DNA of 64,000 nucleotides from Candidatus Danuiimicrobium aquiferis (GCA_001804285.1 MHFR01000037.1:85952-149951); one strand, 5' to 3'; positions 35,134 to 64,000 are shown, numbered from the stretch's first letter. Numbers and translations: made by a program. The notes: generated by a model not told the origin, from the sequence alone.

Positions 35134-38100
35134 TTAAGCTGCGGCTTCTATTAAACGCTGAATCTCCGGCAAAGATTCCAAGTATTGCCAAAATTCAACA
35201 TACGCAATTGACGGATAGCCGTTTTGCTCGCCCAACGAGAAGCCATGCGCCTGAGTCGTGAAATATTGCTTCAGCAAAAGGCCGTATTCATCCGCGCCGA
35301 TCTTAATTCCCTTCATATACGCCGATAGATGATTTAACGCTAAAATTAAAGAAAAAGCAGTGGTCACTTTAGAAAGATGATCAAGCTCCTGGAATCGCTC
35401 CCCATCACCGATTAAAACCAGCAGATATTTAAACTGGCTTGCCTGTTCAGCGGACCCAACCAAAATCGCGGCCCCGTGCTGGCGCCCGTCCATCATGGCA
35501 TTTTCCGCAAATTCCGAATCCGTGAACTTGATCACCCGGTAAAGTTGTGCTCTGGAAATCCCGCTTTCAATCACGGTCTCTGCAAGGCTACTTGCCTTCT
35601 TCCCTGAAATCGTAAGCCATGGTTTTCCGTCATCACGCTGAAATCGAATCAAAATTCTTGCAAAATCCGGAAATAGAGTTTTATCGGAAAATATGGGATC
35701 CTCCGATGAAAGATGCACAAATCCTTCGGGGGTGAATAGTAATGCTTCCGTCATCCTGAGCGCCAGCGAAGGATCCACGCCCGTCGATTCAGAAGAATTC
35801 GTCGCAAGCCCACTCAACCGATTCGCAAATATTTCTGTCACCGGCTCCGGTGTTTCCGCAAACGCTTCAGGAATCAGCGATCGAAGAATTTGATCCTTCC
35901 CGAATCGGCTCACCGCCTCCGGTGCCACAGTCCTTTCTGCCACTTCTTTCGCCACCGCGAGGACGCTTTCGAGAGAAACACCACGAATGTTGTCATTGCG
36001 AGGAGTCCCGCCAAAAGCGGGACGACGCGGCAATCCATACTCGGGGATTGCTTCGCCTTCGGCTCGCAATGACACCTCTTGTTGGCGTGCACGATACCCT
36101 TTTTCGCCCCCAATTTTTTCTTTTTTACTTTCCGCTTTGCGACCCTCCGAGCGGGCTTGCATCAGAAGATCATGTACTTGAGGCTGTGCCGTGATAAGGG
36201 CTGAGTTTACGGTTGGTTTATTGTCAACAATCTTCAGGCGGTTAAAATCCACAGGGAAGAAATCACGGGAATTTTCGTCCGTCACCTTTGCTCCAAGCGC
36301 AAATCCGACATGTGCGCCCCCAACCACATCCCAAAGGTTCGAGCCGCCATCCAAGTAGGCATCATAAACCCCAAAAGCGACCAACAGCGCGCTGATGATC
36401 CCAGATCCAGGACTTGGCTCTGCGTTGATCTTTTTCTTGGTCACCAATTGATAATGCCGCGCAGAAAACTTTTCAATGCCCGGAATAAATATTGCATTTA
36501 CTTCTGAAAGCGTCGTAGCCTTCGAAGCCGGAGGCATAAATTTCTGGCCGTTTAGAAATACACCTCCCGAATGGACTTCCACCATAACCGACTGGGCCCC
36601 ATTCATTTCGAATTCGGGCGCATAAATAACGGTATAAACCGGATTGCCCTTATCTAAAAGCGACAGGGTGAAACAATAATTTTTCCAACCGTTGATATAA
36701 GGCCGTGTTCCGTCAAGCGGATCAAGCACCCAAACAAACCTCGTTTTTTTTGCGCGTTCCAGAACCCCCATATCCCGCTCAAACATTTCTTCGCCAATCA
36801 CCAGAGAATCCGGAAGCAATGCAGACACCTCTTTCCTCACCATCTCTTCAATCACCGGATCCACGCCTATTGCAATATCCGAACCATCAAGTTTCCTCTG
36901 TGCTTCGATTTTACTGGCTTTCACCCGAAGCATAATTTTCCCGGCTTCTAACGCAAGGCGCTTCATCGTATGAAGGACTTCCCATTCCTCAAATGCCTTG
37001 GCAAAATTTTGAACACGCGGCTGGAATGGATCGGAACGTTTCGTCGCGATAGTGTCTATAAAATCTGCCGCAATTAGTAGCGTCAGGACGTCTTTCGCGT
37101 CAACATCCGGGTTGATTTGATCGACAAATTTTTGGAATACATCAAGCGACGGGACACCCTTAGACACACCCTCAACGAAATATAACGCGCCATGAAGCCG
37201 GACAGCTTCTATTAATGTTTCCCGATTCGCAAGCCCTTCGGCCAATAACGGATTACTTCTTAACAGATTTGTCGACGCGGCCTCATGATCCGGGTAAAGC
37301 ATTAACGTCCTGCCTTCTTCAATAATTACTTTCGCAGGAACAGTTATTTTGCCGATATCGTGCAGTAAAATAAATTCTTCAAAAAACCGACGGTTCGCAG
37401 GATTTGATAAAACGGCCCGGAATCTTTCGGGTATTTCACCGTACGACGAAGCATAATTCAGAACATCTACCATGGCCCGGAGATGATCCCGCAGTAGCGG
37501 CCCTTCCTGATGAACTTGGAGCGGATAATTTGGAATATTGAACCGGTCATGAAATTCCAAAGGAAGCCTCTCTCGAATCAGTGCCTCAATCGAATCCGCC
37601 CTCAATTCCGATCTCATAAAATCATACTGCGTATTCTCACCGCCAAATGTAGAAAGCCATTCATGTTCAAGGAGTAAATGCATATCGTTAACCGTATGCC
37701 AGTACGCGCGCGAAGGTTCTGCCACATTCAGATTCCAATCATCTTCAAATCCTTGGGCCGTTTTACGCACAAGCGCCAGCACTTTTGCCCGTTCTATTTC
37801 CCGAATCGCAGGATCGTCCGAATACGGAAGCTCCATAATCCGTCCGATTGCCATGTGCCCGAATTTCGGCCGTGATGTGATTCTATTTTCGCCGATGAGC
37901 CGCTTCGCCTCGCTATTTAATTGTTCCATAAAAGGATGAAAACGGTCTTCGGGGTCGGCAAAAAATCCGACAAACCCACCGTCGGCCGTTACTCCATAAC
38001 CAAGTTGAAATAAACGAAACACTTTTGTGCTTTCCGTATTCTGCTTGACCATGCCGCGAATCGTTTGCTTTTCATCTTCGTTGAGCGGAACAAATGTTTT

Positions 38101-63175: not shown

Positions 63176-64000
63176 TTACGCACTCCTCATTTGCGCGAGC
63201 AGCGCGTCATAACTCGATTCAATACCATTCATCAATTCAGACAAGGTTAGCGAAAGCGCCTCACCTTTCTTTTCCTCCATCGCGGCCAGAGAATATTCGA
63301 TGATCTTGTCGCCATAAACCAGTTGAGCCGCCGCAATCGTTAATGCGCCGTTCACAACTTTAAAGTCAGTTTTCCGCAGCAATTCCGGATCAACTTGAAT
63401 ATAGGCGCGGTCTCTCGCATAAACATTTTCAAACGTGGCTCTCACAAGCTGCATGTCATCGGCATAAATCGACGCGCGATTTTCAGTCATCAATAACCGG
63501 CTCCTGAGTTGCGCCGGCAACCGGACTTTCGCATCATTCACCAAATCTTGATAGGAGGCCTGGTCAACCGCAAACACCGCCACGTTTGTCACGGCAAGAG
63601 CCTTGGCAAGAATGTCCATGCTGGATGTCCGTTCATCCCATTGCATCACAAACAGCCGCGAATTGTCATAGGTCTTGCCGATACCCAAAGCAAGTTCGCT
63701 AAATTTCTGTATCAGCACAAAATCAAATTTGTCGGCAAGCTGAGACACATCTTGCCCCGCAGAACGCCGGACAATCTGGCGAAGCGTGTTCCGGTATACC
63801 ATGGCGTCCTTACTTTCCAATGCTTCGCCTAAACGCCCTTGCTCTTCACGATTCAACAAAACGGGGACAGGTTCTGGTTTCGTTAAAGCAGAATCTGCCC
63901 CCGTTTTGGGTGCAACCGGCGCAGGTGTAATCTTTACTTCTCTCTCCGGTCTAACAACCGGTGTCACACGCCCCTCAGCAATCCTGGCCTCAGAACGCGG
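63176..64000 (-). CDS. C-terminal part of a third large ORF, 5'-truncated by the window edge, containing an in-frame family C repeat
   Basis: The track ORF 63176..63967 (263 aa) starts at an internal Met. The same frame stays open to position 64000 (...GQILL*-less reading; the rev-comp of 63968-64000 has no stop). The family C element at 63858-63960 (ggggacaggttctggtttcgttaaagcagaatctgcccccgttttgggtgcaaccggcgc) is translated as VAPKTGADSALTKPEPVPVLLNRE. Confidence 0.5.
   Translation of the reverse strand, partial: PRSEARIAEGRVTPVVRPEREVKITPAPVAPKTGADSALTKPEPVPVLLNREEQGRLGEALESKDAMVYRNTLRQIVRRSAGQDVSQLADKFDFVLIQKFSELALGIGKTYDNSRLFVMQWDERTSSMDILAKALAVTNVAVFAVDQASYQDLVNDAKVRLPAQLRSRLLMTENRASIYADDMQLVRATFENVYARDRAYIQVDPELLRKTDFKVVNGALTIAAAQLVYGDKIIEYSLAAMEEKKGEALSLTLSELMNGIESSYDALLAQMRSA

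Follow-up and report, generated by a model that had tools for sequence, protein, structure and literature searches.

Giant genes of the Omnitrophota

Giant open reading frames (ORFs) of Omnitrophota have been described in three recent studies. They include ORFs of more than 20 kb (Seymour et al. 2023, PMC10066038), 'Archaeovorin'-type giants of more than 90 kb, with type II secretion or pilus clusters near giant genes (West-Roberts et al. 2023, bioRxiv 10.1101/2023.11.21.568195), and 'multi-enzyme metabolic cluster' proteins of at least 10,000 amino acids (aa) (Nielsen and Lui 2026, bioRxiv 10.64898/2026.06.07.730766). One of the three states that the cleavage points of such proteins are unknown, which blocked structural analysis. 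The locus described here is an array of three giant genes, p1, p2 and p3, in a 64,000-nucleotide (nt) stretch of Candidatus Danuiimicrobium aquiferis (GCA_001804285.1, MHFR01000037.1:85952-149951; the whole stretch is referred to as the window). A short motif, R-[S/A]-E-[A/V]-R, recurs at the junctions between modules of these proteins, and there is about an even chance that the giants are bacterial polyproteins cut at it, a cleavage predicted from sequence.

The three genes, very probably from a member of the same phylum, resemble the published Omnitrophota giants in having an N-terminal signal peptide and internal transmembrane (TM) segments, and in a mosaic of NUDIX, PPDK_N, HEAT, HD and glycosyltransferase domains with many unannotated stretches. 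The domains found here are NUDIX, PPDK_N, PEP-utilizers, DUF218, Inositol_P and HEAT, while HD and GT2 are weak or below cut-off. Type II secretion / type IV pilus genes are also nearby (window 7.5-17.5 kb). With 36 kb and 12,008 aa, p3 falls within both the >20 kb and the >=10,000 aa definitions. In contrast, p1 (5.5 thousand aa) and p2 (3.7 thousand aa) are below every published cut-off, and none of the three reaches 90 kb. A scan of p1, p2 and the final 3,263 aa of p3 gave no SecA-DEAD, C39, S8 or methyltransferase domain, and no dockerin domains were seen in the examined parts of the giants. The original prediction for this DNA called giant secreted proteins of this kind essentially uncharacterised. 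This overstates the case, since the three studies (PMC10066038; 10.1101/2023.11.21.568195; 10.64898/2026.06.07.730766) have catalogued giant ORFs; it stands for their function and processing.

The giant genes themselves are thus members of a known, unexplained class. The junction code, the N-terminal head domain with its predicted TIKI fold and the internal export signals look new, and split-gene versions of the same architecture in other genomes appear unreported so far. In their searchable text, the published giant papers mention neither a conserved TIKI-fold domain at the N-terminus nor any junction motif, and they describe no twin-arginine or lipobox signals inside the chains. A literature search on an Omnitrophota polyprotein, the motif strings and a TIKI/ChaN link, with most subscription journals outside its coverage, gave nothing relevant.

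Two better-known kinds of long protein are useful for comparison. In flavivirus-type polyproteins, one ORF gives many proteins, and protease sites alternate with signal-peptidase sites. Viral polyproteins share with the giants short junction motifs containing basic residues, internal signal peptides and a lineage-specific motif code. The giants differ in that they are encoded on a cellular chromosome beside nusA-infB and consist of metabolic and envelope modules, and in that their processing is deduced from sequence. MARTX toxins, 3,500-5,300 aa long, are strings of unrelated effector modules freed by cleavage of the inter-module linkers. The MARTX effector RRSP has the same TIKI fold that is predicted for the N-terminal domain (N-domain) of the giants (PMC6254334). 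Here this fold is the invariant N-terminal head and not cargo, and the signals are of the Sec, twin-arginine and lipoprotein types instead of type I secretion. Neither glycine-rich A/B/C repeats nor a C80 cysteine protease gave a Pfam match in p1, p2 or the p3 tail.

The junction motif

The minus strand carries all three giant ORFs: p1 (35134-51705), p2 (51881-62968) and the 3' end of p3 (63176-64000). R-[S/A]-E-x-R is found in eight copies in p1, seven in p2 and five in the p3 tail. Its strict form, R[AS]E[AV]R, is present 17 times where 0.09 copies are expected (5 against 0.04 in p1, 7 against 0.02 in p2, 5 against 0.03 in the p3 tail). Variants with lysine are absent from p1, p2 and the p3 tail, and the 25 genes in the other 35 kb of the window have no in-frame copy. 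The strand, the motif, the internal export signals and the cysteine depletion were not part of the original prediction.

By pattern matching, the strict copies in p1 are RAEAR at aa 793 (49315-49329) and those at 49177-49191, 42310-42324, 41005-41019 and 38461-38475; the variants are RAETR (39685-39699), RSELR (37600-37614) and RSEGR (36139-36153). In p2, RSEAR at aa 563 (61268-61282) is followed by copies at 61196-61210, 56489-56503, 56255-56269, 54692-54706, 53258-53272 and 53066-53080. The part of p3 inside the window has RSEAR (63983-63997), and the preceding 3,000 aa, available in public scaffold L006, contain four more RSE[AV]R.

The codons used for arginine, serine, alanine, glutamate and valine differ among the copies, which shows that the motif is conserved at the protein level. 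A DNA repeat was rejected as its origin for the same reason. Translation of a repetitive extragenic palindromic (REP) element was also considered because one REP family reads ...IARSE[AV]TKQS. This was rejected as well: the motif serine is encoded by TCN, that of the REP element by AGT, and the arginine codons also disagree.

The motif copies avoid all Pfam envelopes in p1, p2 and the p3 tail, and the pieces between them are mostly 270-520 aa long. Order-promoting residues are less frequent in the motif flanks (0.321 versus 0.379, p = 1.4e-4). Such positions could also be recombination joints, where the motif marks the boundary of swapped cassettes, like the conserved motifs in front of variable toxin domains in polymorphic toxins, and has no role in the protein. 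Modules are shuffled among giants of different genomes and the motif classes are lineage-specific, both as expected for cassettes. But 15 nt with free synonymous variation cannot sustain homologous recombination, only the amino-acid level is conserved, and the flanking DNA is unconserved save for occasional repeat elements. We regard recombination joints as improbable.

The modules might instead be translated separately, either by internal initiation or by peptide-triggered release and restart at the motif. That modules bear their own export signals, and that split-gene versions exist elsewhere, would suit this explanation. However, a Shine-Dalgarno sequence with a start codon follows 3 of 15 motifs, no enrichment over a background of 0.17-0.20, and selection would have no cause to purge all stop codons over 11-36 kb. 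We know of no bacterial counterpart of the 2A-type skipping peptide. Separate translation is very improbable.

Internal export signals and cysteine depletion

Three p2 modules are preceded by lipoprotein-type signals, all on the minus strand. The first, found by sequence scan, is the lipoprotein-like signal ATVSVLTVGLVVVGIGGLFAALPG-C1068 (59765-59839). The other two combine a twin-arginine motif with a lipobox. In KVTRRAFIAGAAAGVVAIYG-C2310 (56039-56101; TRRAFI...YG-C) the arginine pair is about 54 aa past the motif RAEAR (aa 2234), and in FDRRLFLTGASAAAVGA-C2804 (54557-54622; DRRLFL...GA-C) it is about 27 aa past RAEVR (aa 2755). Relatives also have signals behind the motif, for example RSEAR-NLSRRSFV (P0093), RSEVR-TSTRRKFLGALAVG (P0131) and RAEVR-GERSFLG...SSGC (P0038).

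The lipobox cysteines C1068, C2310 and C2804 are three of only four cysteines in the 3695 aa of p2. Cysteine makes up 0.11-0.16% of the giants, compared with 1.16% of the proteins of neighbouring genes. When the relatives L063, L073 and L033 are included, the range is 0.05-0.23% against roughly 0.5-2% in neighbours, and the whole family is depleted, its median being 0.28% beyond the N-domain. Cysteine depletion usually goes with proteins that work outside the cytoplasm. Its strength here suggests that most products of the giants act there, either at the envelope or on another cell that serves as host or prey.

The shared N-terminal domain

Both p1 and p2 begin with a signal peptide and an N-domain of about 500 aa. 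In p1, a Sec-type signal peptide, MKQLLFRAIAVLLSVTFSVTSAVSYA|Q, was read from the sequence (51580-51660, minus), and the N-domain (49666-51528, minus) has the elements IHIQDAH ... LEGG ... VTGGFH and three REP-derived insertion blocks. In p2, the N-domain (61334-62851, minus; aa 40-545) has the putative catalytic residues D98, H100, E128 and H498. The two domains are 26-40% identical in blocks (E 1e-16). The original prediction took p1 and p2 for paralogues because of this common signal-peptide-bearing domain. The relationship holds for the domain and does not extend beyond it: outside the N-domain no similarity could be detected among p1, p2 and the p3 tail.

An AlphaFold2 model of the N-domain, based on 21 diverse members (pLDDT 84, pTM 0.76), has a TIKI/erythromycin-esterase/ChaN fold, with a parallel beta-sheet core, flanking helices and a helical insertion of about 300 residues that splits the core. 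Among the 21 members H61, E89 and H459 are invariant, and D59 is present in at least 90%; the family-invariant pattern is D-A-H, a glutamate 28 residues on, an arginine, and G-G-F-H. The catalytic residues of RRSP are two histidines and two glutamates, E3900, H3902, E3930 and H4030 (PMC6254334), and the 28 residues from histidine to glutamate in the N-domain equal the distance from H3902 to E3930. The correspondence to the TIKI active-site residues was drawn from motif and spacing and not from a superposition of structures. The features in common with the TIKI superfamily (Tiki, RRSP, TraB/PrgY, EreA-C, ChaN, HopBA1) are acid-x-His, the glutamate 28 residues on and the C-terminal G-x-x-His (GGFH). 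The differences are the absence of a significant sequence-profile match, the long helical insertion, and a first acid that is aspartate and not glutamate. Most members of the family also have a cysteine after the first histidine (DAHC), though p1 and p2 do not. Pfam (the PF01963, PF04187 and PF05139 clan) gave no match to the p1 or p2 N-domain, and a PDB profile search returned nothing relevant. Because the acid-x-His/Glu/His constellation is conserved with RRSP spacing, the N-domain is probably an active hydrolase; peptidase and esterase are both possible.

The domain is widespread. In an exhaustive HMMER search (E <= 1e-3), 7,356 cluster representatives match the p2 N-domain. Among the best 150 of the 7,356, which are 500-7,376 aa long, it is N-terminal (about residues 30-570) with a single exception. 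When one genome per species was scanned, the domain was found at no fewer than 427 loci. Nearly all are labelled Candidatus Omnitrophota, among them Omnitrophus magneticus, O. fodinae, Aadella and Tantalella, and several loci per genome are common. By these matches the N-domain marks a very large family of long proteins that is almost confined to Omnitrophota. Separate homologue searches gave no relatives for the p2 N-domain, none for p2 module D, and one weak match for the p1 HD-IMPase (inositol monophosphatase) module.

Motif classes and split genes in relatives

Other members of the family have junction motifs of their own. P0037 contains 17-18 copies of [AG]xSLG, depending on the pattern, and P0092 has 10 copies of KxSSAG. 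In P0128 there are 15 copies of RAEVR and 18 of R[AS]ExR in all. The spacing of the motifs in these lineages is similar to that seen here. In 19 of 23 cases the motif class is common to nearest N-domain relatives. The N-domains of p1 and p2 are only 27% identical, yet their motif is the same as that of p3 from the same genome. Motif class thus appears to follow the genome rather than the lineage of the N-domain, and one motif across such diverged N-domains and p3 hints at a recognition factor at the level of the genome. In L046, another Omnitrophota giant, a recurring EARS / ExGLD was rejected as a junction motif; it is part of a large internal duplication.

At six Omnitrophota loci (L013, L020, L053, L068, L070, L036) the N-domain has a gene to itself, 516-653 aa long, and one to three long, cysteine-poor ORFs follow immediately. 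Fused and split forms are therefore interchangeable. At L063, the tail of another cysteine-free ORF is found just upstream, and tandem arrays recur elsewhere.

Modules behind the N-domain

In p1, the N-domain is followed by a block of four TM helices, two or three NUDIX domains, PPDK_N with a swivel domain, about 900 aa without a match, and six motif-bounded modules. Of these six, in order, the first two match NAGPA and GT2 weakly, the third contains DUF218, the fourth has no match, the fifth is Inositol_P preceded by a weak HD match, and the C-terminal one is again unmatched. The membrane block (48676-49053, minus; about four TM helices) begins about 45 aa past the motif at aa 839. One NUDIX domain is encoded at 48112-48426 (minus), with a second near aa 1382-1446. 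The PPDK_N ATP-grasp and PEP-utilizers swivel domains (45064-46485, minus; domain match) are laid out as in phosphoenolpyruvate synthase or rifampin phosphotransferase, but the C-terminal domain usual there is missing. DUF218 (39100-39531, minus) is within the module between the motifs at aa 4003 and 4411. The HD-like and inositol-monophosphatase/CysQ-like module is at 36193-37464 (minus); its HD part is below the Pfam cut-off, and its IMPase domain ends 14 aa ahead of the motif at aa 5185.

The module with the weak NAGPA match (aa 3133-3562; 41020-42309, minus) shows that the pieces can be found in other settings. Residues 3133-3567 of p1 match aa 603-990 of L046 end to end with 43% identity, and in L046 the module is directly behind the N-domain, a different position in the chain. 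Such an end-to-end match in another context indicates that the motif-bounded segments are evolutionary units. Stand-alone enzyme families also match giant modules at near-full Pfam length.

No part of p2 beyond the N-domain has a Pfam or NCBIfam match. A metagenome contig scan with p2 aa 2100-2850 found no relatives, and single-sequence AlphaFold2 of p2 module D reached pLDDT 29. The last 3,263 aa of p3 contain HEAT repeats and weak HD and GT2 matches. Internal TM-like segments occur in p1, p2 and p3, as called by Kyte-Doolittle scan only.

Cleaved chains or uncut scaffolds

Two marks of a polyprotein are found in the giants. Their modules are independent elsewhere, as stand-alone enzyme families, in the L046 module and in the split genes, and a short conserved motif is present at the module junctions of p1, p2 and the p3 tail. 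In the proposed scheme, each giant gene would be an operon fused in frame and translated as a single chain. A sequence-specific protease would cut the chain at or beside the motif, freeing protein-sized pieces of 270-520 aa; any of these that start with a twin-arginine and/or lipobox signal would go on to be exported and lipid-anchored independently. The protease may act in trans because the motif class appears to follow the genome and not the N-domain lineage. The TIKI-fold N-domain, the only cis candidate seen, is conceivably the protease itself, an assignment that we consider doubtful. A wider proposal, which is tentative and falls somewhat short of an even chance, is that the whole phylum uses a virus-like strategy: TIKI-headed in-frame operon fusions would carry junction codes that differ by lineage (RSE[AV]R here, GASLG and KSSSAG in others), and cutting at these would yield envelope proteins, lipoproteins and enzymes by the dozen, some of them exported by twin-arginine or lipoprotein signals of their own.

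Several points weigh against cleavage and against the assignment of the N-domain. Cleavage is deduced throughout from sequence. By its Sec signal the N-domain should be exported, whereas twin-arginine signals require a free N-terminus on the cytoplasmic side. The ATP-grasp, NUDIX and IMPase modules look cytoplasmic, and both they and the Sec signal sit uneasily with the model. Hydrophobic signals follow 7 of 75 motifs against a background of 3.6%, a modest enrichment. One stretch of p1, 2,289 aa long, and one of p2, 1,569 aa long, have no internal motif. Only about 15-20 of 121 long family members have a statistically clear recurring motif; processing may not be general, or other motifs may be too degenerate for detection. 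For the N-domain, Foldseek ranked TIKI-family structures first, led by EreC and BcR135 (E 0.07-0.3), with E values (0.07-1.4 overall) that are not significant, and a weak PF04187 match (E 0.03) in 2 of 21 relatives is otherwise the sole profile link.

The main rival is that the giants are never cut. They would be multi-domain envelope proteins forming a membrane-anchored coat, adhesin or enzyme scaffold, in which the motif serves only as a conserved linker, as a hinge or for docking, and the internal hydrophobic signals are TM anchors that thread alternate modules across the membrane. This matches the proposal for the giant protein of Velamenicoccus archaeovorus, and the published Omnitrophota giants are seen as multi-TM and membrane-associated (PMC10066038; 10.64898/2026.06.07.730766). 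The internal TM-like segments of p1, p2 and p3 would suit such a scaffold, cysteine depletion is consistent with an envelope location, and a clear motif is missing in many family members. However, a mere linker needs no strict five-residue sequence with two invariant arginines, kept over 17-20 junctions in three genes with varied codons. Lipobox cysteines retained in an almost cysteine-free protein point to processed signals, which need free N-termini, and the canonical S/T-R-R-x-F-L signals directly behind motifs also argue for processing. Split-gene versions of the architecture exist as well. Uncut scaffolds are, in our judgement, unlikely.

Organization of the array and assembly support

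The original prediction described two uninterrupted ORFs, and both were found as described, with 5523 and 3695 aa and no stop codons. The p1 frame is counted from TTG 51705. The more likely start is ATG 51660, preferred by gene callers in independent assemblies and preceded 9 nt upstream by GAGGA, which gives 5508 aa; p2 starts with ATG. The third ORF was said to run off the window. It is open to the window edge, its 274 codons there being the final ones of a gene of 12,008 aa that is located upstream of p2 on the full contig. The order of the array is therefore p3 (12,008 aa), p2 (3,695 aa) and p1 (about 5,508 aa). On the 3' side of p1 are a 190-aa ORF, nusA, infB, a DHH-family gene, truB, ribF, pnp and ftsK, so that the array is just upstream of the nusA-infB operon.

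That these frames are under selection was also claimed, and their length bears this out. The chance of 3695 open codons is (61/64)^3695, or about e^-177; runs of 3.7-5.5 thousand open codons do not arise by chance, and the ORFs are genuine selected coding sequence.

Assembly breaks were named in the original prediction as evidence that would count against the ORFs. Instead, in several assemblies the p2 protein is identical on 13 contigs and NusA is identical on 19 contigs, and the gapless ENA contig k141_2650573 is 100% identical to the window across 22,120 nt. The window corresponds to NCBI MHFP01000041.1 (GCA_001804245.1, Rifle aquifer). Older scaffolds, including this one, deviate from the window only through runs of N within p1. 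In the public scaffolds L005, L006 (MHFP01000041.1) and L007 these gaps are at window positions of about 48580 and 42150, and they explain why p1 is not called in the NCBI record. The first gap site is also the end of one contig, and it adjoins a REP-like hairpin, TTCCCGGATCGGGAA, inside the ORF. In-frame indels between assemblies were considered and rejected: the apparent differences are scaffold N-runs and not polymorphisms. The giant ORFs are not assembly artefacts. REP-like hairpins in p1 did cause breaks or gaps in some assemblies, a point in favour of an artefact, but the identical proteins, the gapless contig, the absence of any stop codon across 16.6 and 11.1 kb and the Pfam domains matched near full length leave an artefact, or decayed pseudogenes, a practically negligible chance.

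Spacers and REP-like repeats

REP-like hairpins occupy the spacer between p2 and p1 (51706-51880), and similar ones are present between p3 and p2 (62969-63175) and between p1 and the 190-aa ORF (34854-35133). The giants had been described as separated by REP-containing spacers. The hairpins are in all three, but the last spacer has no giant on its far side. A 64-aa ORF that gene finders call between p3 and p2 (62982-63176), wholly inside a REP spacer, is probably spurious. Members of these hairpin families are also present in ordinary intergenic DNA (2145-2252, 8733-8758, 10245-10434, 11875-11967) and in frame within p1, and they are generic elements of this genome.

The flank 'tttgaagt', noted earlier in two spacers, is contained in a common 24-nt stretch, ACTTCAAAAC[G/A]CTAAATA[G/A]ACACG, at 34870-34893 and 51710-51733 (minus), just 5' of the starts of the 190-aa ORF and p1. 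It has no sigma-70 promoter match. When the window and the spacers were scanned for Rfam families, tRNAs, promoters and terminators, nothing was detected.

From these repeats the original prediction suggested that the giants were duplicated or mobilised together with a compound REP-type element. Related hairpins in all three spacers, and the 24-nt stretch just ahead of the next start codon in two of them, would agree with this. However, the same hairpins are found in unrelated intergenic regions and in frame in p1, the giants have only the N-domain in common, at about 27% identity, and this domain heads thousands of differing proteins phylum-wide. Duplication or mobilisation with the repeat is hard to credit.

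Repeats are also present inside the genes. Alignment to p2, DNA repeats and translation identify three in-frame REP-derived blocks in the p1 N-domain, at 50767-50886, 50620-50712 and 49960-50190 (minus), which between them translate as VIPAQAGIH..., VIARSEVTKQS... and SFPHVFSGNP...SGMT. They map to loops of the structural model. The distant relatives P0040, P0085 and P0128 have similar insertions in the same loop, ahead of the FYxxAxxR helix. An 80-nt in-frame palindromic element, MGTGS...PEPVP, was found among DNA repeats at 40934-41013, 49244-49323 and 63849-63928 (minus). The two p1 copies are just 3' of junction motifs, and that in p3 is about 55 nt from its motif, which suggests that linkers at junctions tolerate insertions. 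Rickettsia palindromic elements are in-frame repeat insertions within genes. Here, too, short palindromes are in frame in loops and linkers and the ORF is preserved. The element families and the phylum are different, and here the same N-domain loops have been hit in several distant relatives.

Other features of the window

A type II secretion / type IV pilus cluster (7514-17553) is downstream of the giants. It encodes two pilin-like proteins with N-methylation motifs, a sigma-54 response regulator, a histidine kinase, T2SSF, two T2SSE/MshEN ATPases and a stand-alone MshEN protein. The first 8000 nt of the window (1-8000) have a GC content of 0.38-0.39, compared with about 0.46, and a different AT skew. 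Its genes are for two PMT_2-type glycosyltransferases, one of them fused to TPR repeats, for a methyltransferase and for a B12-binding radical SAM enzyme, and the region may be an acquired glycosylation island. The ORF at 19542-20549 contains a CDP-alcohol phosphatidyltransferase (PgsA-like) and a PgpA phosphatase in one frame. Two enzymes that act one after the other in phosphatidylglycerol synthesis seem to have been fused here.

Implications for Omnitrophota

Giant genes fill a large share of the small genomes of Omnitrophota, bacteria that are thought to be ultra-small episymbionts or predators. Whether each giant is one molecule or many products was left open by the three recent studies. 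A strict junction motif together with internal export signals makes this question concretely testable. If the giants are polyproteins, the motifs would be the missing cleavage map for the giant proteins of Omnitrophota, and polyprotein processing on a large scale would occur in a cellular organism. A function would then also be assigned to a domain family that has no annotation so far and comprises over 7,000 sequence clusters.

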